Shown here: piece after piece, positions 11,004 through 23,568 of the stretch | How the letters are laid out: each line of letters begins with the position of its first letter | Position numbering within the stretch: the first letter of the stretch is position 1 | NCBI GenBank assembly: GCA_014728035.1 | Contig: WJMJ01000022.1 | Location: forward strand, 64,001 to 128,000 | Reading direction: 5' to 3' | Source: Promethearchaeota archaeon | Lineage (GTDB): Archaea; Asgardarchaeota; Thorarchaeia; Thorarchaeales; Thorarchaeaceae | DNA length: 64,000 bases | Position numbers and translations under genes: made by a program | The notes under the pieces: model-generated | Told to the model about the DNA's origin: nothing | What the model saw: only the letters and a program-made list of their open reading frames with translations | The model's database searches: none

Positions 11004-11999
11004 CTATGCGAATCTGCCTTCTGAAGGATCCATAGTAATCTGTAGGTTCTTCACAAGCTCTTTGTATCTATTACGTACAGTCACCTCAGTCACATTGCTT
11101 GCTTGAGCAATCTCACGTTGTGTACGTCGATCATCTTCTATGATTCCTGCAATGTATAGAGCTGCTGCTGCAATACCACCTGGGTCCTTGCCTACAGTGA
11201 TTCCTTTCTGTCTAGCATCTTCGATAATGTCTGTTGCTCGTTTAATGGTGCGTCCTTGGACTCCTAAGTCTGCAGATATTCTTGGAATGAGGTTCTTCGC
11301 TGATGGAAGAGGTACTTTCATGTCAAGATATCTGATAAGAAGGCGAACAGCTTGACCGAGTTTCTTTCTGTCAATTCTACTCTCGTCAGCAAGTTCGTCA
11401 AGTCGACGTGGAATCTTGTGAATTCTACATGCTAAGTATACCGCTGCTGCTACGACACTTTCAATACTTCTGCCACGGGCTAGTTTCTTGCTTAGTGCCT
11501 TTCTGTAGATAAGTGCAGAGCGTTCACGAGTTTCATGAGGTATTCCTAGCTGTGAACTTAATCTTTTCAACTCATTAAGGGCGATTCTTAGATTCCTTTG
11601 GTCCGAACTATGAGCTTGTGTTCTGATCTGCCATTTTCTCATTCGGTAAATGGACGCTCTAGTGCTTGCCTTGATTGGCCTTCCACTTGCGTCTCGATTA
11701 CTCCAGCTTATTGTAGTAGAGAGTCCTTTGTCTGCAACCATTACACTCATTGGCGCTCCTGTTCTTTCACGGGATTCTCTCTCTTCAGCTGTGAAAGCTC
11801 TCCACTCAGGGCCAGTATCAATTGTGCCTTCACCAGCTACACATCCGCATGATGTGCAGATTGTTTCGCCGCGTTTTCTATCTTCATAGAATTCTTCTGC
11901 GCCGCAAAGCGTGCATACAGTTTCTCTGTTGTCTTTGACTTTTTTGCCATCTATACCCATTTTAACGACCTTCAAACGAAGGATCTTCTGTCTCTCCAT
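11004..11999 (-). CDS. tfb: Transcription initiation factor IIB (paralogue 1)
   Basis: Zn ribbon CTLC..CTSCG, B-reader GPEWRAF, cyclin repeats, TEVTVRNRYK; start may be ATG 11960. Confidence 0.95.
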   Translation of the reverse strand: MERQKILRLKVVKMGIDGKKVKDNRETVCTLCGAEEFYEDRKRGETICTSCGCVAGEGTIDTGPEWRAFTAEERESRERTGAPMSVMVADKGLSTTISWSNRDASGRPIKASTRASIYRMRKWQIRTQAHSSDQRNLRIALNELKRLSSQLGIPHETRERSALIYRKALSKKLARGRSIESVVAAAVYLACRIHKIPRRLDELADESRIDRKKLGQAVRLLIRYLDMKVPLPSAKNLIPRISADLGVQGRTIKRATDIIEDARQKGITVGKDPGGIAAAALYIAGIIEDDRRTQREIAQASNVTEVTVRNRYKELVKNLQITMDPSEGRFA

Positions 12000-12261: not shown

Positions 12262-13206
12262 TTATGGTCTAATTGTGATTTGCAAATTGGTCGCGAGGTC
12301 TTTGTATCTGTTTCGAACAGTTACCTCAGTTACATTGCTTGCTTCTGCTATCTCACGCTGTGTTCGTCGGTCGTCTTCAATGATGCCAGCAATGTATAAT
12401 GCTGCAGCAGCAAGACCACCTGGATCTTTCCCAGCTGTGATTCCTTTCTCTCTAGCTTCATTGATTATATTCATAGCAGTCTGAACAGTCTTGCCATCAA
12501 GCTCCAAGTCTGCTGAAATCCGTGGCATTAGATCGTTCGCTGATGGAATAGGAACTTTCACATCAACATATCGAAGTATGAGTCTCACACATTGCCCTAA
12601 TTCCTTTCTATTAACTCTGGCTTCTGTTACAATTTCGTCAAGTTGACGAGGGATCTTATGAATCCGGCATGAAAGGTATATTGAAGCTGATACCATACCT
12701 TCAATGCTTCTTCCTCGTACAAGTCTTTTTGTTAGTGCTTTTCTGTAGATGAGTGCAGCAGTTTCTTTTGTTTCACGAGGAACTCCTAACTGAGAAGTGA
12801 GTCTATCCATCTCACTCATGGCAATACTGAGGTTGCGATGTTGTGAGCTATGTACTAAGGTTCTAATTTGCCATTTTCTCATTCGATAGATTTCAGCACG
12901 TTTTGTAGCTGCTATTGCTCTACCATTAGCATCACGGTCGCTCCAACTAATGGTTGTTGCAAGACCTTTATCTGCCATAGTGAGGGTCATTGGCGAACCA
13001 GTTCTGGCTCGTGCATCTCTCTCTTCAGCGGTGAAGGCACGCCACTCAGGCCCTGAATCCATTATACGTTCATTAACAACACATCCACATGATGTGCAGA
13101 TATTCTCTCCTCTTGTTATGTCTTCATAGAATTCTGTTCCTCCACAAATAGAGCAAACAGCTGATGGTTTTCGCCTATCACCCAATGACCTGACTGGTTT
13201 TGCCAA
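12262..13206 (-). CDS. tfb: Transcription initiation factor IIB (paralogue 2)
   Basis: CSIC..CTSCG, GPEWRAF, RGRSIE and TEVTVRNRYK motifs; AGGTGA RBS. Confidence 0.96.
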   Translation of the reverse strand: MAKPVRSLGDRRKPSAVCSICGGTEFYEDITRGENICTSCGCVVNERIMDSGPEWRAFTAEERDARARTGSPMTLTMADKGLATTISWSDRDANGRAIAATKRAEIYRMRKWQIRTLVHSSQHRNLSIAMSEMDRLTSQLGVPRETKETAALIYRKALTKRLVRGRSIEGMVSASIYLSCRIHKIPRQLDEIVTEARVNRKELGQCVRLILRYVDVKVPIPSANDLMPRISADLELDGKTVQTAMNIINEAREKGITAGKDPGGLAAAALYIAGIIEDDRRTQREIAEASNVTEVTVRNRYKDLATNLQITIRP

Positions 13207-13427: not shown

Positions 13428-14003
13428 TTATTCTAGACAGCTCATTTCACGAATAACTGCATCGGGAATAATGTGTATGTTTTCGTATATTGTATCTCCT
13501 TCATCAATCATCGTTTTTGCAAGAGCTATCTTGACAAGACCATCCTTTCTACCTAGGAAATATCCTGCAATAAATTGTAATGGAACCTGCTTGTCAATTG
13601 CCTCTTCTTTAGTCATTGGACAGCATTCCACTCCTGGGCTCTCATAACTAACCTCAACTAATTCATGCCCGTCGCAAAACTCCAGTCTCGAGAGGTGTTT
13701 GGTCTTATTTGTGATTCGTTCTTTGCCGGTCATACTATGAACAGTTGTGGCATCGTAATGGAAAGGATCACCACGTTGTTTGTGAATACTGGGAACCAGA
13801 TAGAGTGTCCTATCTTCCATGGACTCTACTTTGTTGCTACCATCATCAACAAATTTCTTGTCGGTACTCTCTCCAACCAAATATCGCACATGGAAATGTT
13901 TCGCATCAACAAGTTTCTTTTCGTCACCATCTTGTACTGTAATCATTGTATTGTCCCACAATTCTACAGGATTAAACGGATTGTTTTCTAACTCACTCAT
14001 CAT
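13428..14003 (-). CDS. Hypothetical protein, possibly tandem Sm-like beta domains
   Basis: 191 aa, beta-rich; C-half LVEVSY..AGYFLG..VKIA..IIP..I; AGGTG RBS. Confidence 0.65.
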   Translation of the reverse strand: MMSELENNPFNPVELWDNTMITVQDGDEKKLVDAKHFHVRYLVGESTDKKFVDDGSNKVESMEDRTLYLVPSIHKQRGDPFHYDATTVHSMTGKERITNKTKHLSRLEFCDGHELVEVSYESPGVECCPMTKEEAIDKQVPLQFIAGYFLGRKDGLVKIALAKTMIDEGDTIYENIHIIPDAVIREMSCLE

Positions 14004-14017
14004 CTACACCTTTAAGG

Positions 14018-14041
14018 TATAATTAACTATGGTTAATTATA
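14018..14041. promoter_or_regulatory. Palindromic operator-like site TATAATTAAC-TATG-GTTAATTATA
   Basis: Perfect 10-bp arms in a divergent intergenic region; core repeated at 16364-16377. Confidence 0.55.
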
Positions 14042-14182: not shown

Positions 14183-14881
14183 ATGGCTTTCGGGTTACTT
14201 CATATTCTCTTCTTAATTTCAGGAGTGCTTATAGTAGGATGTATTCTTTTTCTTTCTAGACGCTATATGGCTCAGAAAAATACCTTGACATTGGTATTCA
14301 CGCTATTTCTGATATCTTATGCCATTATTGGGTTTGCATACGGATTGAGAGGATTTTTTGATCCTCAAACTGCACCAGAGATTCTCCTCTGGGTTCTGAC
14401 GAACTTAATGTATCCCATTATGGTTGTACCTTTAGCAGTATTCCTCGCCTACCCTTATCTTCAAGAACAAATTGGAACTCTTACTGGTTTCATAACTCGC
14501 TTAGTTATGATATTTGCTTTTGTAGTAGTTGTCTTCAATTGGGGTGTCATTTTTACATCAGATATTGAATTCACCTATATCGATCTCTTTGAGCTTACTC
14601 ATTATGCTCTTGTTTCAGATTTTATTCCCTATGCATATTATTTGACTCTCCTTCTGGATATAGTCGTAGCGACTTTCTCAGCTATATTTTTGGCAATATC
14701 CTTCAAGAGGGAAACAGACTCTGTGTACAAACAAAAGGCACTATTCCTCTTGCTCGGTTGGCTGTTAGTATCTTATGGGCAATTGCTTCTACTAAGTCCA
14801 ACTCTCGCAATCATTCATCCTCTTACCTCTATGAGCGGTGTTATTCTCCTTGTGCTCGGAGTTATCCGTAGCAGTTCATAG
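14183..14881 (+). CDS. Stand-alone 7-TM membrane protein
   Basis: Seven hydrophobic segments with basic loops after TM1 (RRYMAQK) and TM5 (KRETDSVYKQK); no soluble domain. Confidence 0.75.
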   Translation: MAFGLLHILFLISGVLIVGCILFLSRRYMAQKNTLTLVFTLFLISYAIIGFAYGLRGFFDPQTAPEILLWVLTNLMYPIMVVPLAVFLAYPYLQEQIGTLTGFITRLVMIFAFVVVVFNWGVIFTSDIEFTYIDLFELTHYALVSDFIPYAYYLTLLLDIVVATFSAIFLAISFKRETDSVYKQKALFLLLGWLLVSYGQLLLLSPTLAIIHPLTSMSGVILLVLGVIRSSS

Positions 14882-14924
14882 ACGTTAGGATTACACCTAT
14901 ATGAATTGTCTAATGTGATGACAT

Positions 14925-15422
14925 ATGACAGGAAAGGTGGTCAAGATGGCATTGGTAGGTGCTGGTGGAGCTGGTAAAACTACCATTGCCTCTCGCCTTA
15001 TCACAGGTGAGTTCATCGAAACTCTGATGACCATTGGGATAAACATCGAGACCTGGAAACTAGAAGATGATGCTAGCGATTCGGATGTCACGGTGGCTCT
15101 TTTCGATCTTGGAGGTCAGAATCAATTCAGATTCTTTCAAAAGAGTCTTCTCAGTGGTACTCATGCAGTTATTCTTGTCGTTGACATGACCCGTCTACCA
15201 ACACTTTTCGAACTTGATGACTGGATCAAACTTATCCAACATGTTGACAAAGAAATGTGGCTACTTGTTGGGAATAAATGTGATGATCATATCATGATGA
15301 CGGAGGATGATATCCGTAAGAAAGCAGAAGAAATAGGAATCCCCTATGTCATTCTCAGTGCTAAAACTGGCGAAGGGTTTGATGAATTGGTTGAGCGTAT
15401 TATTGATATGATGCGAAATTAG
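14925..15422 (+). CDS. Rab/Arf-like small GTPase
   Basis: G1 GAGGAGKTT, G2 TIG, G3 DLGGQ, G4 NKCD, G5 SAK. Confidence 0.93.
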   Translation: MTGKVVKMALVGAGGAGKTTIASRLITGEFIETLMTIGINIETWKLEDDASDSDVTVALFDLGGQNQFRFFQKSLLSGTHAVILVVDMTRLPTLFELDDWIKLIQHVDKEMWLLVGNKCDDHIMMTEDDIRKKAEEIGIPYVILSAKTGEGFDELVERIIDMMRN

Positions 15423-16345
15423 TGCAACTCTCTCTCAATCAACCTTTTATTGTCATGCGCAAAACTATAATCATTCAATTAGTTTGCAGAGGTATTTGTG
15501 TGTCAAGTTCTGATGAGAAGGAAATATACGTTTTTTGTGAACAATGCAAGCAGAATGTACTCCTACGTGTCCCTCTAACCTCTGATGCTGCTACAAGGGG
15601 CGGCTTAATGTCTGTTGTTTCTGTTCATGGTAACCCTCCTCATGCACTCATGGCATATCTTGATGCAGAATTTCGTGTGAGAGGGATAGAGTATCCAGCA
15701 GCAGCTCAGACTGCGGACGCTGGGCGGATAGAGTCAGTTCCTGAAAGCAAAACGGAGGCACTTGAAGAAAAAGTCGAACTAGGATTATTAGCATTGCTTG
15801 ATATTTTTCATCCAAAAAGAAAGGATGCAATAAAAGCACTAGCAATAATTATGGTCAATATGCTTACCAAGAAGCGAATTTTTCTGATTCATGATGAAAA
15901 AGCAATTGGAACTTCTGTTATTTCGGCACTTCATGATATTGCGTCATTTGAAGAGGATCTGATTACACTCATTAATCATACAATTCTCTCAAAGAGTGAA
16001 CTGAATCCATTTTGTGTCTATGACCTTCAGCAAAATAAACTCCTTCACCAAGGTCCAAAAATCGACTCGAAATATTTTGAGCGCATTCTTCAAGATATCG
16101 CAAAGCACGAAAACCCCTACTTTAGACTTAAGAATGAAATGAGTAAAATCGTATATGCCTATGGTCGATTACAGGAAATTCTTTCAGCTCTGGATTCGTC
16201 TATTCTAGACACTCAGCTCGCTTGTGATGCGTCAATCGATTATGAATTACTTCCATTCCTTCTCGAAATGGCTGAATCTGAAGGGCATAATATCCGGTCA
16301 CTTGTGAAAAAGGACGGTCTCGGAAGGGCTCTTCGCAGTATTTAG
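15422..16345 (+). CDS. C2H2-type zinc-binding domain plus DENN-like protein
   Basis: CEQC..HGNPPH..LDAEFRVRG N-domain; NMLTKKRIFLI..VYDLQQNK core; start GTG 15422 (TAGTG overlap) or GTG 15500 (GAGGT RBS). Confidence 0.55.
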   Translation: MQLSLNQPFIVMRKTIIIQLVCRGICVSSSDEKEIYVFCEQCKQNVLLRVPLTSDAATRGGLMSVVSVHGNPPHALMAYLDAEFRVRGIEYPAAAQTADAGRIESVPESKTEALEEKVELGLLALLDIFHPKRKDAIKALAIIMVNMLTKKRIFLIHDEKAIGTSVISALHDIASFEEDLITLINHTILSKSELNPFCVYDLQQNKLLHQGPKIDSKYFERILQDIAKHENPYFRLKNEMSKIVYAYGRLQEILSALDSSILDTQLACDASIDYELLPFLLEMAESEGHNIRSLVKKDGLGRALRSI

Positions 16346-16363
16346 CGAACTATACGAGTATAT

Positions 16364-16377
16364 TTAACAATGGTTAA
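16364..16377. promoter_or_regulatory. Second copy of the TTAAC-N4-GTTAA palindrome
   Basis: TTAACAATGGTTAA, 13/14 identical to 14023-14036. Confidence 0.5.
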
Positions 16378-16414
16378 CTTTAATAGTGGTGTTTCCAAGT
16401 GAATACTGATTGTA

Positions 16415-16990
16415 ATGATTGAGTATGTTGTGATTGTCTTAGCTGTGTTTCTGTTTGGAATGCAGCATAGTGGTATGTCTGCACTTAAGGTTAAGAATCG
16501 AATTATAGATCGATGGGGGAAGAAGGGCTATTCGCGTGTCTATACTATCACAGCAAGTATCACTCTACTCATTGCATTTCTCTCTATGCAATTTTGGGAC
16601 TGGTTATATTTTCTATTCCAATCATTCAATATTCTTTCATTTGCAGTTGGTATTCTACTGATAATAATTGGGCTGGTGATAACAACTGCAGCTACTAGAG
16701 TCATTTCAGTCAGTACTGTAGCAGATATGCGAACCGACCGGAAACCAGAACTAGTGACTGATGGTATTTATGCTCAAGTACGTCATCCCCTCTACCTTGC
16801 TACAATTATTCTTCTTATTGGACTTATTTTCCTCTATCTTCCCTTTCTGAGAGTCATTGTATTTTCTTTATCTCTGATTGCTTACACTCTAATTGGTGCA
16901 TATCTTGAAGAGAGAAAACTAATTTGTCACTATGGCCAGGATTATTTGGATTATAGAGAACAAGTTGGATTCATCCTTCCAAAGCTATGA
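16415..16990 (+). CDS. Isoprenylcysteine carboxylmethyltransferase (ICMT/PEMT) family membrane methyltransferase
   Basis: LVTDGIYAQVRHPLY and EERKLI..YG..Y..Y motifs. Confidence 0.85.
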   Translation: MIEYVVIVLAVFLFGMQHSGMSALKVKNRIIDRWGKKGYSRVYTITASITLLIAFLSMQFWDWLYFLFQSFNILSFAVGILLIIIGLVITTAATRVISVSTVADMRTDRKPELVTDGIYAQVRHPLYLATIILLIGLIFLYLPFLRVIVFSLSLIAYTLIGAYLEERKLICHYGQDYLDYREQVGFILPKL

Positions 16991-17004: not shown

Positions 17005-17448
17005 TCATTCTGAATTTAGCATCTTTTGTATCTTTGATAGATGTCTTCCTTTTTTAACAGCATCAGGACTGATCTTGTGAACTCGACCATGTTCTACAAC
17101 ATAATGTTCCACTTCCAATTCTGGAACAAAATGGCGTTTGACATCTTCTGTAACAAAATGCAATTGTACGCAATGCGGACTTCCATCAACAGAAAGTGCT
17201 ACAACACGTTTCAGTTGAGAATATCTCACAAATGATGCTATTTTGAAGCCTGCTTGATTAACATGTGCGTCTTCTAGACATATATTCAGGACCGCATAGC
17301 CTCCATCCTTTTGAGCAAATGCTTCAACAATCTCAGGATACTGCGTTAGCATGCAAGTACCGATAATGAGCAATTGGCCTTTTTCCCGAACATGTCGGGC
17401 TCCAACATTGGTACACAAAAGTGGATTGGAGTCGGTCATATCCCTCAA
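17005..17448 (-). CDS. Putative iron-sulfur cluster-binding protein
   Basis: C..C..ICLE and VDGSPHCVQLH motifs. Confidence 0.55.
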   Translation of the reverse strand: MRDMTDSNPLLCTNVGARHVREKGQLLIIGTCMLTQYPEIVEAFAQKDGGYAVLNICLEDAHVNQAGFKIASFVRYSQLKRVVALSVDGSPHCVQLHFVTEDVKRHFVPELEVEHYVVEHGRVHKISPDAVKKGRHLSKIQKMLNSE

Positions 17449-18449: not shown

Positions 18450-19097
18450 CTAGACACTACAATTTAACCTCTTATCAACATTAAAAACAAACACATCTGT
18501 TTTTCGCTCCTGAGAGAGAAATGAATCATGTCTGCTAATTGCAAATTTGCTATTTAGAGACCAGAAATCAAACTCAAATAGTTCCTCGTGTCCACACATT
18601 TCTGGATTTCCAATCCACATCAATGGTATTCCCATTTTAACCAATTCAATTCCTGCCATTGATAGATATGGTTCCCAACTGATAATCACAAGTGCTGGGT
18701 CATATTCCTCGACTGTTTCAATAGCAGTCTTTTTCTCAACCCATTTTGGATATGCAATGTTGTATCGTCCGGTCTTAGCATCTGTTGTAATAATGTCACA
18801 ATCAAGTCTGGTTCGAATAAATTCTGTTAGTCTTCCATCTCCACTCATTACTTCAGCAATCGGATGATTTCCCTCAATTTGAATGTGTTTTTGTATCGTG
18901 TCCGAAATCTCAAGGATAAATTCTTCGCTATAGATTTGAAATATCCATCTCCCACCTGCATTTGACCCATTACAATATTTTTTCACATCAAAGTCACGCT
19001 CAACAACTTTGAAAAACTCGAGTACTTTCGAATATGGGTACAACTCTTCATGAATATCAATGAATACATCTTGGGTGTACATCCAATCATGGCTCAT
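18450..19097 (-). CDS. Hypothetical methyltransferase-fold protein
   Basis: IAEVMSGDGRL SAM-motif-like segment and IISWEP. Confidence 0.5.
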   Translation of the reverse strand: MSHDWMYTQDVFIDIHEELYPYSKVLEFFKVVERDFDVKKYCNGSNAGGRWIFQIYSEEFILEISDTIQKHIQIEGNHPIAEVMSGDGRLTEFIRTRLDCDIITTDAKTGRYNIAYPKWVEKKTAIETVEEYDPALVIISWEPYLSMAGIELVKMGIPLMWIGNPEMCGHEELFEFDFWSLNSKFAISRHDSFLSQERKTDVFVFNVDKRLNCSV

Positions 19098-20930: not shown

Positions 20931-21974
20931 TTAGTTGCCTTTTGTTACTTTGAATACTGATATTGGTGTGGCTGTTTCGAATCTTGCTGCTCCTGCTTCT
21001 TTTACCCATTCTTCCATGGTGTCTTTGTAAAAGAACCCATAAGCTCCCTCTACGACTTTGAAATGGGCTTCACCATACTTGTTTGCGTCTGGGTAGAAAT
21101 TCTGAGTGCCAAATAGGAAACCGCCAGGTTTTAGCACACGAAGCATCTCTGTGATGGCACTTTTTGGATCTGTCCAGTGTAGCACTTGGGATGCATAGAC
21201 AATATCAAAGGTCTCATCATCGAAGGGGATGTTTTCAGCATATCCTGGATGAAACTCCACCGGGAATTCGTTTACTTTGTCTTTGATACTCATGTCATGT
21301 CCGTTGTGCTCGGAGACCATCTGGGCAAACTCCTCTTGTGCTATCCGAAGAAGATTCTCATCTGGATCGATTGCTACTATCTGCATTGGGGACCCATTTT
21401 GGAATAGATCGTTTTCATAGTAGTAAGACCAGATTGCGGCTGTTCCCCGGCCGTTTCCAGAGCCTACATCTAGAAATCTTATAGGCTCTTTCAGCGCGTC
21501 TGCAAAAGCAAAAGCTGCGCGGCGAATTTGTTCATAGAGCTTGTTTGACAGTGCGTCGTCCCAGTTGAATAGATTGAGACCTCCTGTAAATTCAATGTAC
21601 TTCCCTCTAAGTCTGTCAGGTATAGCTCTTGCGTGGTCAACCCAAAGTTCTTGCATGGCATCATCAAAACAGCTTGGGCATTGCCAGGCAAATTGAATCT
21701 CTTCGTCGATGAAAAGGTGGTCATCATCTTGTTCGATCACGCCATCCTCTAGCAAGATTGATAGAAGATATTCTAGGAATTCAATATCTGTATATTTGTA
21801 CTCCGATGCAATCTCCATGATAGTTTTAGGTTCTCTCAGTAAGTCGAACCAACCTTCATTTCTTAAAACTCCCAGAATATTTCCTCGAAAGAAGATGTCT
21901 ATTTCTGTTCTGAGTTTTGACACATTCAAACCAAGTTTCATTAGTTCTTTCCAAGCTTTCAATTTTCTAATCAT
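20931..21974 (-). CDS. Class I SAM methyltransferase with N-terminal wHTH
   Basis: LDVGSGNG, IDPD, AENIPFDDETFD, LHW and RVLKPGG; GGAGGTGA RBS. Confidence 0.88.
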   Translation of the reverse strand: MIRKLKAWKELMKLGLNVSKLRTEIDIFFRGNILGVLRNEGWFDLLREPKTIMEIASEYKYTDIEFLEYLLSILLEDGVIEQDDDHLFIDEEIQFAWQCPSCFDDAMQELWVDHARAIPDRLRGKYIEFTGGLNLFNWDDALSNKLYEQIRRAAFAFADALKEPIRFLDVGSGNGRGTAAIWSYYYENDLFQNGSPMQIVAIDPDENLLRIAQEEFAQMVSEHNGHDMSIKDKVNEFPVEFHPGYAENIPFDDETFDIVYASQVLHWTDPKSAITEMLRVLKPGGFLFGTQNFYPDANKYGEAHFKVVEGAYGFFYKDTMEEWVKEAGAARFETATPISVFKVTKGN

Positions 21975-21988
21975 AATTTCACCTCCTT

Positions 21989-22903
21989 TTATCTTAGTAG
22001 CCCTCGCCTATCCACATAATCTAGCATATCGAAAATTTGTGAAATCTTACCTATTTGCCCCTGTTCGAGGAGATTGATTACACTTGCAGTTCCACTTAAC
22101 AGTGGCATAAGAATTTCTTTTGCAAAGGGATATTTGCGTTCAACTCGCTCCACAATAGATGGTATTCGAGGTATGAATCCAAATTCAATTTTTGAGTATA
22201 GTCGATCATCGGAAGCCAACCTGATTAGTATCTCTGGATTTATCTTTGGATATTCTGATATTACATGCAATCCTAGAATGAGTAAACGTTTGTCAGGTAT
22301 TGCATCCCGATGTGTGTTTTTTGTCAGCTCTTTAAGAAGAATTTTGATAGATGTTATAGCTGCCGCTCCCTTAGCGGTCACGCAGGCAACTCTTGAATTA
22401 TTAATCCAGATTCGCAAGTCTTGATCTGCAATTGTAAAACTCATCTCCTCTGGTAGAGTTTCATATACGCGTTCTGCCTCCTCTACTTTTTTATCGAGTA
22501 ACCTAGCAAGTTCTAACAATCGCACTTTCTCGCTTCCTAGCCCTTCCATGACCCACGAGTCAATTCTGTCCATAATGAATACATTCTCAAGGTAGGGGTG
22601 CGTATGTAGTGCATCAGGTTTTTGAGATACTAGCCAGAGTCTTTTTTCTTCTTCGAGCTTATCAATCTGTTCGACAAAAGCATCTTTGTGACCACGGAAT
22701 AGATGTTTATGGTCCACAACTACAGTGTTAACATGACGTTCATTTCCAATCTCGTGAGCAACTCGATACGTTGTGAGTTGCATACCAAAGAATTTCTCAT
22801 GTGTTGTCTTTGACTCGAATGTTGTTGGGTTTTCAGGATCAAATTTGATAGGCTCATTACATACAGCACATTGAAACTGTGTTATCTGTTGAATTTGACT
22901 CAC
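21989..22903 (-). CDS. C2H2-type zinc-binding domain protein, GTPase partner
   Basis: CAVC..HEIGNERH..VDHKHLFRG; GTG start at 22903 overlaps the GTPase stop, with GGAGGT RBS. Confidence 0.65.
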   Translation of the reverse strand: MSQIQQITQFQCAVCNEPIKFDPENPTTFESKTTHEKFFGMQLTTYRVAHEIGNERHVNTVVVDHKHLFRGHKDAFVEQIDKLEEEKRLWLVSQKPDALHTHPYLENVFIMDRIDSWVMEGLGSEKVRLLELARLLDKKVEEAERVYETLPEEMSFTIADQDLRIWINNSRVACVTAKGAAAITSIKILLKELTKNTHRDAIPDKRLLILGLHVISEYPKINPEILIRLASDDRLYSKIEFGFIPRIPSIVERVERKYPFAKEILMPLLSGTASVINLLEQGQIGKISQIFDMLDYVDRRGLLR

Positions 22904-23568
22904 TATGCTACCTCCTTTTTGAAGAGATGGTCCACCAGCCAACGTTTTATACCATTCATTCCTTGTCCTGTCATACAGCTAATCTCAAAATATTCAACTA
23001 TCTGGGGATTGCCATGGAGAATCGCTTCAATCAACCCTTTGTCCATGGTGCAGTTCAAATCACACTTGTTTCTGACTAGGATAAAGTCGGGAGTTGGGCT
23101 TTTTGTCTGTGATATATAATAGCCAGTCAGCAAGTCCATCCATTCAGTCAAATCAATTAATGATTGAATATTGTCACTTGCAAAAACAAGGATGACTACA
23201 TCCACACCTCCGAGAGCAGTTCGACTAATATCTTTGAGTGCATGAATAGGGGAGTCGAGCTGTCCAGAAATATCGACCATTTGACATACTCCAGTAATGT
23301 CTTCCTCTACTAGATCGGAAGCTGCTATTGCAGATAGGTCGATGAAATGTGTTCGGTGATATTCTGCTTCTCCCTCAAGCAATTCTCCAAGGCTCTTTTT
23401 CTCTCTCAGAACCGTTAGTAAGCTGGTTTTTCCAACGGCCCCAGACCCTGCCATCAGAATCTTTCTGATTCCTTTTCGCAGTTTTATTTCTTCTATCATA
23501 CTCCGGGATGTTTCAGGCTCGTGTTCTTTGGCAGTCAATTTACTCGCACTCATTTTTATCACAGGCAA
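22903..23568 (-). CDS. Divergent Ras-superfamily small GTPase
   Basis: G1 GSGAVGKTS, G3 DISGQ, G4 NKCD, G5 ISC. Confidence 0.88.
   Translation of the reverse strand: MPVIKMSASKLTAKEHEPETSRSMIEEIKLRKGIRKILMAGSGAVGKTSLLTVLREKKSLGELLEGEAEYHRTHFIDLSAIAASDLVEEDITGVCQMVDISGQLDSPIHALKDISRTALGGVDVVILVFASDNIQSLIDLTEWMDLLTGYYISQTKSPTPDFILVRNKCDLNCTMDKGLIEAILHGNPQIVEYFEISCMTGQGMNGIKRWLVDHLFKKEVA

Follow-up and report, generated by a model that had tools for sequence, protein, structure and literature searches.

Among the hallmarks of membrane traffic in eukaryotes are DENN domains and Rab-like GTPases. [quoted passage not shown] Later papers list DENN domains among the Asgard eukaryotic signature proteins and discuss folliculin-type longins. 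In actinobacteria, G protein systems known as conservons (CvnA-D/Mfp) comprise a sensor kinase, a Ras-like GTPase, a Roadblock GTPase-activating protein (GAP) and a DUF742 GEF, and have been likened by their authors to G-protein-coupled signalling (PMC13343842, PMC13621833, PMC11343762). Here we analysed a locus of Promethearchaeota archaeon (Thorarchaeia; GCA_014728035.1) within positions 64,001-128,000 of contig WJMJ01000022.1, a 64-kb window to which all coordinates of the locus refer. In it, genes for a seven-transmembrane (7-TM) protein, a small Rab-like GTPase and a protein joining a zinc-ribbon-type module to a DENN-like domain stand in a row, followed by an ICMT-family methyltransferase gene (Table 1). 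The closest public relative of the source genome is the BAJATHOR metagenome-assembled genome GCA_008080745.1, at an amino-acid identity of 81-88%. Gene content, predicted folds, linkage and phylogenetic pattern lead us to read the first three genes as a membrane-associated small-GTPase regulatory module of Thorarchaeia to which the ICMT-family gene is unrelated, a reading that we hold with a probability of roughly 0.55.

The cassette resembles the operon of Liu et al. in being of Asgard origin and in placing a DENN-type domain, seen by sensitive methods only, beside a Rab-like (not Rag-like) GTPase. It differs in that it begins with a 7-TM membrane protein where theirs begins with a Roadblock protein, and in that its DENN-like domain is fused to a zinc ribbon, not a longin domain; the family may be among their DENN asCOGs. 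Among prokaryotes, the closest functional analogue is the conservon, likewise an operon in which a small Ras-like GTPase with its regulators is coupled to a membrane sensor protein. The conservon sensor, however, is histidine-kinase-like and its regulators are Roadblock and DUF742 proteins, whereas the cassette has a kinase-free sensor module and a DENN-fold regulator, and its link to DUF742 is a weak match (9.4e-4) found only in zinc-module/winged-helix paralogs elsewhere in the genome. We found no description of a 7-TM/Rab-like GTPase/zinc-ribbon-DENN cassette in the searchable literature, where one may still exist, and both the 7-TM partner and the zinc-ribbon architecture of an Asgard DENN-like protein appear to be undescribed.

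Binding, exchange activity and sensing enter the proposed mechanism as follows. The 7-TM protein, via its conserved cytoplasmic loops, would hold the DENN-fold protein at the membrane or control it allosterically there; the DENN-fold protein would determine which nucleotide the Rab-like GTPase carries, and the analogy with DENN Rab-GEFs makes exchange-factor activity the most likely way; the zinc-ribbon module is the component that recurs next to GTPases of this subfamily. A cassette that has lost its own GTPase could be served by same-subfamily paralogs encoded elsewhere.

The protein at the centre of this proposal escaped family libraries, as Pfam and NCBIfam left the window copy unrecognised, and when 1.84 billion representative proteins were searched exhaustively with a profile of its family, only 54 matched, 16 of them below 1e-30. 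Its longest open reading frame (ORF), 15422-16345, overlaps the GTPase stop. Because all homologs begin at the position of a GTG codon at 15500, we place the start there, giving a protein of 281 amino acids (aa) and therefore a real GTPase-to-DENN-like gap of 77 nucleotides (nt); an earlier note on this DNA had described the third gene as abutting the GTPase stop, which is true of the ORF but not of the gene. An AlphaFold2 model built from 20 sequences (predicted local distance difference test (pLDDT), 78.7) comprises a five-strand N-terminal module (residues 6-64), a disordered linker (69-92) and a C-terminal domain (96-270; pLDDT about 90). For this domain, the top Foldseek matches were confined to the DENN family, with DENND1B and Rab35-bound DENND1A ahead of C9orf72/SMCR8, DENND10 and folliculin. 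VIA-align gave Z scores of 13.2 for DENND10 (over 163 residues), 10.9 for folliculin (163-165) and for DENND1A (149; root-mean-square deviation (rmsd) 3.2), 9.7 for SMCR8 (165) and 9.5 for C9orf72 (175), with winged-helix-only matches next after the DENN family (7.3, about 60). An independent ESM Atlas model of the whole protein matched eukaryotic DENN clusters at template modelling (TM) scores of 0.59-0.61, against an AAA+ background of at most 0.40, and two ~282-aa Asgard clusters at 0.71-0.72. The predicted structure contains the core DENN alpha/beta fold together with the helical d-DENN part. Because both structural aligners and the ESM Atlas model give DENN, the DENN-likeness guessed in the earlier note is borne out at the level of fold. 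Compared with eukaryotic DENN proteins (DENND1A/B-Rab35, DENND10, folliculin, C9orf72-SMCR8), the protein is much smaller, about 10% identical and devoid of a u-DENN/longin domain. A search of the source genome with PF02141 and PF16692 found nothing and is uninformative, since control genomes gave nothing either.

Genomic linkage ties this DENN-like family to the 7-TM family. DENN-like genes occur in 44 of 87 Thorarchaeia genomes (13/17 genera) and 7-TM genes in 16 (8/17 genera). Across species-representative Thorarchaeia genomes we counted 23 7-TM loci, two of them cut by contig ends; in 16 of the 21 assessable loci the DENN-like gene directly follows the 7-TM gene, and in five it does not. 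One of these 16 cassettes is a paralogous pair from the genome of the window locus (contig C130), and the 221-aa membrane protein that it encodes is a clear homolog. A GTPase gene lies between the 7-TM and DENN-like genes in six of them and upstream of the 7-TM gene in one, making seven in total; one further cassette holds a GTPase remnant, seven have no GTPase and one could not be called. The invariant axis is the 7-TM/DENN-like pair, with the GTPase a frequent but dispensable member, contrary to the earlier picture of the GTPase as a constant partner. The remnant, of 57 codons, lies between the 7-TM and DENN-like genes in a 237-nt gap (L001 5533-5706; GCA_016839445.1, JAEOUG010000149.1); only its last ~25 residues (SAKTGENFDRLI...) are recognisable, with the G5 end kept, and it represents either an ongoing deletion or an assembly artefact. 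The full trio also occurs on a metagenomic contig, at about 48% identity.

In a maximum-likelihood tree of the DENN-like family, rooted on distant non-Thor homologs and leaving out three truncated duplicate rows, the Thor family forms a single clade (97/99). The 18 solitary DENN-like genes, which adjoin an unrelated MsrA gene, all group together (100/100), all other lineages are 7-TM-linked, and GTPase-containing cassettes appear in three lineages within a base that the tree does not resolve. The most economical interpretation is that the 7-TM/DENN-like pair is ancestral and was unlinked once, and that the GTPase is an old cassette member lost repeatedly. Beyond Thorarchaeia, ~290-aa proteins in three genomes of the Asgard genus g71 (family f22) match the DENN-like profile at positions 7-230, and the gene directly before each encodes a conserved four-TM protein of ~160 aa, no GTPase being close by (L073 3351-4842, L074 3702-5163, L075 3667-5128); because these genomes are close kin, we count them as one observation. 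Kinship of the four-TM proteins with the 7-TM family was considered and rejected (hhalign, 0.1%). The arrangement suggests that zinc/DENN-like proteins of this type generally pair with a small polytopic membrane protein.

The 165-aa GTPase matches Pfam Ras (2.5e-24), and also Roc and Arf, and its motifs are intact (G1 GAGGAGKT, G3 DLGGQ, G4 NKCD, G5 SAK), confirming the complete G1-G5 set reported earlier. Its best solved relatives are Rabs, namely Sec4 (5e-18), Rab1, Rab18 and Rab35. When run on five other genomes, its profile gives 166-244 bits for one to three genes in each and at most 98 bits for every other small GTPase, which sets it apart as a distinct Rab-like subfamily. It shares the G domain with G1-G5 with the Rab family but lacks the prenylatable C-terminal cysteine: it ends in ...IIDMMRN, a CAAX- or CC-type cysteine motif is present in 0/7 cassette GTPases, and no cassette protein of any kind has a C-terminal cysteine.

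The module fused to the DENN-like domain leads back to the same GTPases. Its fold, as read from whole-protein models, resembles the zinc-ribbon type, with CxxC on one hairpin, HGxPxH on the next and then D-x3-R-x-R-G; C13, C16, H43, G44, P46, H48, D55, R59, R61 and G62 are invariant, and the Atlas matches are many Asgard-only clusters plus Zn_ribbon_21/CpXC, not longin. The module occurs in 188 of 400 Asgard genomes, whereas full-length matches to the 281-aa protein are limited to one Thorarchaeia family. Contig C125 of the same genome carries two tandem triplets (L028 1364-3034 and 4379-5980), in each of which a GTPase from the cassette subfamily accompanies a zinc-module/winged-helix protein of ~150 aa and a V4R/TRAPP-like protein of ~200 aa. 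The zinc-module/winged-helix proteins are those with the weak DUF742 match and also give a weak HTH_47 match; in one of them the zinc module and that of the 281-aa protein are homologous (hhalign 97%, E 3.6e-11, residues 7-69 only). The triplets form another GTPase system, distinct from the cassette, that is built on this zinc module. A winged helix common to both protein types was considered and rejected, the alignment covering residues 7-69 only. In other genomes, too, GTPases of the subfamily that lie outside the cassette adjoin zinc-module genes (G034:C27, G015:C123, G015:C62), and because of this adjacency outside cassettes we regard the module, which is Asgard-wide, as a recurrent companion of this one GTPase subfamily.

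As a compact set of three proteins amenable to expression and reconstitution, the cassette offers a case in which a membrane-linked GTPase switch can be tested in archaea. Gene linkage attaches its DENN-fold protein to a specific membrane protein and, across many lineages, to a specific GTPase as well. Work on it could reveal whether DENN domains of archaea act as exchange factors, how they reach membranes without prenylation or longin domains, and whether prokaryotic 7-TM sensor modules can use a GTPase switch instead of a kinase as output.

We modelled the three chains (7-TM, GTPase and DENN-like) together, with the DENN-like protein as the scored partner. The complex score was 0.45 (runs 0.40, 0.52 and 0.45), against 0.00 in 3/3 controls, including one in which the 7-TM chain alone was replaced; the runs have 65% or more of their contacts in common, and the partner has a pLDDT of 68 or higher. 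In calibration, 58 of 80 solved complexes attained the mark, against 2 of 110 mismatched pairs, but scores passing at 0.60 or less came from only 7 of those 80 solved complexes together with both mismatches that passed, and the three-chain job is unlike the calibration set. The prediction may slightly raise the odds of a physical complex, no more.

Several observations weigh against a DENN-type regulatory module. The complex prediction is weak and returned no interface. Across 20 members of the DENN-like family there is no DENN-clan Pfam match at E<=1 (PF02141 and relatives), a profile of the family searched against PDB sequences found no DENN chain, and the canonical u-DENN (longin) domain is absent, the N-terminus being a five-strand zinc-ribbon-type module without helices. 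About half of the 7-TM/DENN-like cassettes carry no GTPase, one whole DENN-like clade has neither a 7-TM gene nor a GTPase nearby, and the fold match of the 7-TM protein, described below, separates 7-TM classes only poorly. GEF activity, moreover, is not implied by the fold, because folliculin and C9orf72-SMCR8 complexes are GAPs via longin domains.

The same three-part module might accordingly work with the DENN-fold protein as a GAP, effector or scaffold, its zinc module (R59, R61) contacting the GTPase and its DENN-like domain mainly docking onto the 7-TM protein. It is the zinc module, not the DENN domain, that is common to all proteins found beside this GTPase subfamily, and R59, R61 and G62 are invariant in it; folliculin-type DENN proteins work as GAPs (PMC12290439), and the fall of the complex score to 0.00 once the 7-TM chain alone is replaced lends slight support. 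We nevertheless consider this arrangement unlikely, if well worth keeping in view: the published GAP motif (adjacent GP before longin beta-2 plus an arginine finger) does not map onto the zinc ribbon, and no interface was returned for the complex. Equating HGxPxH/RxRG with the longin-GAP 'GP motif plus arginine finger' was rejected, since the module is of zinc-ribbon type and its motifs lie at other positions.

In the membrane-associated regulatory module that we favour, the membrane component is the 232-aa protein, whose hydropathy profile has seven hydrophobic segments. Its loops are basic after TM1 (RRYMAQK) and TM5 (KRETDSVYKQK) and acidic after TM4, and the predicted N-out/C-in topology fits this positive-inside charge bias. 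An AlphaFold2 model built from six homologs (pLDDT 86; predicted template modelling score 0.80) has seven helices and a beta-hairpin at 127-144, which sits in the acidic TM4-TM5 loop, and the chain terminates four residues past TM7 without a fused output domain, histidine-kinase output included. Hydropathy and model agree with the earlier description of seven TM segments, an outside N-terminus and no fused kinase or cyclase. The window protein has zero Pfam matches and the NCBIfam scan was equally uninformative. In a 19-sequence alignment of the family, the conserved cytoplasmic loops are RRY (post-TM1), YP (post-TM3) and RETDxFYK (post-TM5), and the extracellular TM4-TM5 hairpin carries a conserved TYxDxxGLxHY. 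The nearest predicted structures are N-terminal sensor modules of HisKA_7TM/7TMR-DISM histidine kinases and of GGDEF/EAL proteins (TM score 0.71-0.78, rmsd 3.2-3.6). Pfam HisKA_7TM (PF16927) matches 4 of the 19 members (best E 8.3e-7), the window copy being unmatched and the same-genome paralog scoring 15.3 bits, under the cut-off of 28.6. It is the sole recurrent match, and no Pfam family of G-protein-coupled receptors (GPCRs; 7tm_1/2/3 etc.) appears at E<=1 among the 19. The top PDB fold matches of the model are GPCRs, with scores near the helical-bundle background. We read the protein as a stand-alone prokaryotic sensor-type module that resembles HisKA_7TM/7TMR-DISM at least as well as GPCRs. 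It shares with those modules its size, its seven helices and its closest predicted shapes; they are usually fused to kinase or GGDEF/EAL outputs, whereas it stands alone and its apparent output is the separately encoded DENN-fold protein. At one related locus (L018 3368-3819; G015:C125:6648-7238), a second gene of the 7-TM family lies ~1.1 kb downstream of a 7-TM/DENN-like pair and is interrupted by TGA, possibly as a pseudogene or through recoding.

The 7-TM protein might instead be a mere membrane anchor, or transporter-like, with the GTPase switch localised for membrane remodelling or trafficking-like roles and no signal input. That its closest shapes are sensor modules of signalling proteins, that HisKA_7TM matches recur in the family and that the extracellular hairpin has conserved residues make this rather improbable. 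At the other extreme, the 7-TM protein could sense an extracellular or membrane signal and relay it directly to a DENN-fold GEF that activates the Rab-like GTPase, the 7-TM protein itself being homologous to a forebear of eukaryotic (class C-like) GPCRs, which we regard as improbable. Its shared trait with the TM domains of GPCRs (class C, adhesion, Ste2) is seven TM helices with the N-terminus outside, but there is no sequence relationship and no heterotrimeric G protein. For a GPCR ancestry, at which the precursor-like receptor switch of the earlier note hints, we found no specific support, and prokaryotic sensor modules match at least as well; a 'class C GPCR' cluster in a preprint (10.64898/2026.10.28.762692) might include this 7-TM family. 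Were such a receptor-coupled system nevertheless real, it would represent an archaeal forerunner of receptor-to-small-GTPase signalling, with a DENN domain older than its longin fusion.

The functional unit could also be the 7-TM/DENN-like pair only, for example a membrane-tethered regulator whose C-terminal winged-helix-like segment binds nucleic acid, the GTPase being incidental. Against this very unlikely arrangement, the DENN-family matches span the winged-helix-like segment as part of the domain, and at much higher Z; the GTPase is kept in three separate lineages and at the 48%-identity metagenomic locus; and the zinc module is found in association with GTPases across the genome.

The 7-TM, GTPase and DENN-like genes, and no others, lie between two near-identical 14-bp palindromes (TTAACWATGGTTAA). 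The 4.3-Mb genome has six such sites, compared with 0 for the control; genome L003, from the same genus, keeps the pair at these two positions, and it is not kept at more distant loci. The palindrome is a candidate operator of a regulator. The bracketing places the methyltransferase gene outside the unit. That gene scores above the Pfam cut-offs for PEMT (43.2 bits), NnrU (38) and ICMT (27.5; cut-off 24), but the NCBIfam isoprenylcysteine methyltransferase equivalog NF040696 gives 46.2 bits, under its cut-off of 160; the ICMT-family assignment proposed earlier stands at the Pfam level, with PEMT and NnrU stronger and the equivalog cut-off failed. Because the gene follows the cassette in one genus only (g1, that of the window genome) and the cassette GTPases have no C-terminal cysteine, its link to the GTPase fails, and with 0/7 GTPases carrying a CAAX-type cysteine its supposed place in the system falls away; it is probably an unrelated neighbour. 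Hardly credible, then, is the full model of the earlier note, in which a GPCR precursor acts on a prenylated, ICMT-methylated Ras-family GTPase with a DENN GEF as one four-gene system: co-directional genes, an ICMT match just over its cut-off and GPCRs as top PDB fold matches speak for it, but the missing CAAX-type cysteines, the restriction of the ICMT-family gene to one genus and its place outside the palindromes, the failed equivalog (46 bits vs 160) and a GPCR similarity near the helical-bundle background, which prokaryotic sensor modules at least equal, speak against it.

As that note had stated, all four ORFs are present and co-directional on the plus strand; on one side a divergent gene ends at 14003, and on the other lies a convergent gene (17005-17448; ORF list). 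None of the outcomes that the note named as refuting has appeared: the TM count is seven, a DENN-type fold is present and gene order is conserved elsewhere, the last applying to the first three genes and not to the ICMT-family gene, which keeps its place in the same genus only.

Table 1 Features of the cassette and its edges, in window coordinates.
Feature	Position	Strand	Basis or remark
7-TM protein, sensor-module type, stand-alone, 232 aa	14183..14881	+	hydropathy, AlphaFold2, alignment
Rab-like small GTPase, 165 aa, without C-terminal cysteine	14925..15422	+	Pfam, G1-G5 motifs
Zinc-ribbon/DENN-fold protein, 281 aa, GTG start	15500..16345	+	homolog starts, fold comparison
N-terminal zinc-ribbon-type beta module (residues 1-68)	15500..15703	+	invariant residues, Atlas matches, hhalign
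C-terminal DENN-like domain (residues ~90-270), alpha/beta core and helical, winged-helix-like tail	15767..16309	+	
ICMT/PEMT/NnrU-superfamily membrane methyltransferase, 191 aa, neighbour	16415..16990	+	Pfam
14-bp palindrome TTAACTATGGTTAA, ~150 nt upstream of 7-TM start, candidate operator	14023..14036		5' edge of three-gene unit
Palindrome copy 2 TTAACAATGGTTAA, between DENN-like stop and ICMT-family start	16364..16377		3' edge of three-gene unit

A second GTPase module lies on the minus strand at 20931-23568. It consists of a divergent 221-aa Ras-family GTPase (22903-23568), a 317-aa partner (21989-22942) overlapping the GTPase stop and a 347-aa methyltransferase-like gene (20931-21974), both also on the minus strand. 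The N-terminus of the partner shows a CxxC...H...H...FRG likeness to the zinc module that we rejected as homology, since it stays at motif level (hhalign 1.2%, E 0.042). Two conserved minus-strand neighbours of the cassette, at 13428-14003 (191 aa) and 18450-19097 (215 aa), are without a Pfam or NCBIfam match. Upstream of the cassette, two highly similar TFB (TFIIB-like) paralogs stand in tandem on the minus strand (11004-11999 and 12262-13206). The TFB pair keeps its order in the BAJATHOR genome, where the 191-aa neighbour gene adjoins the cassette as well.

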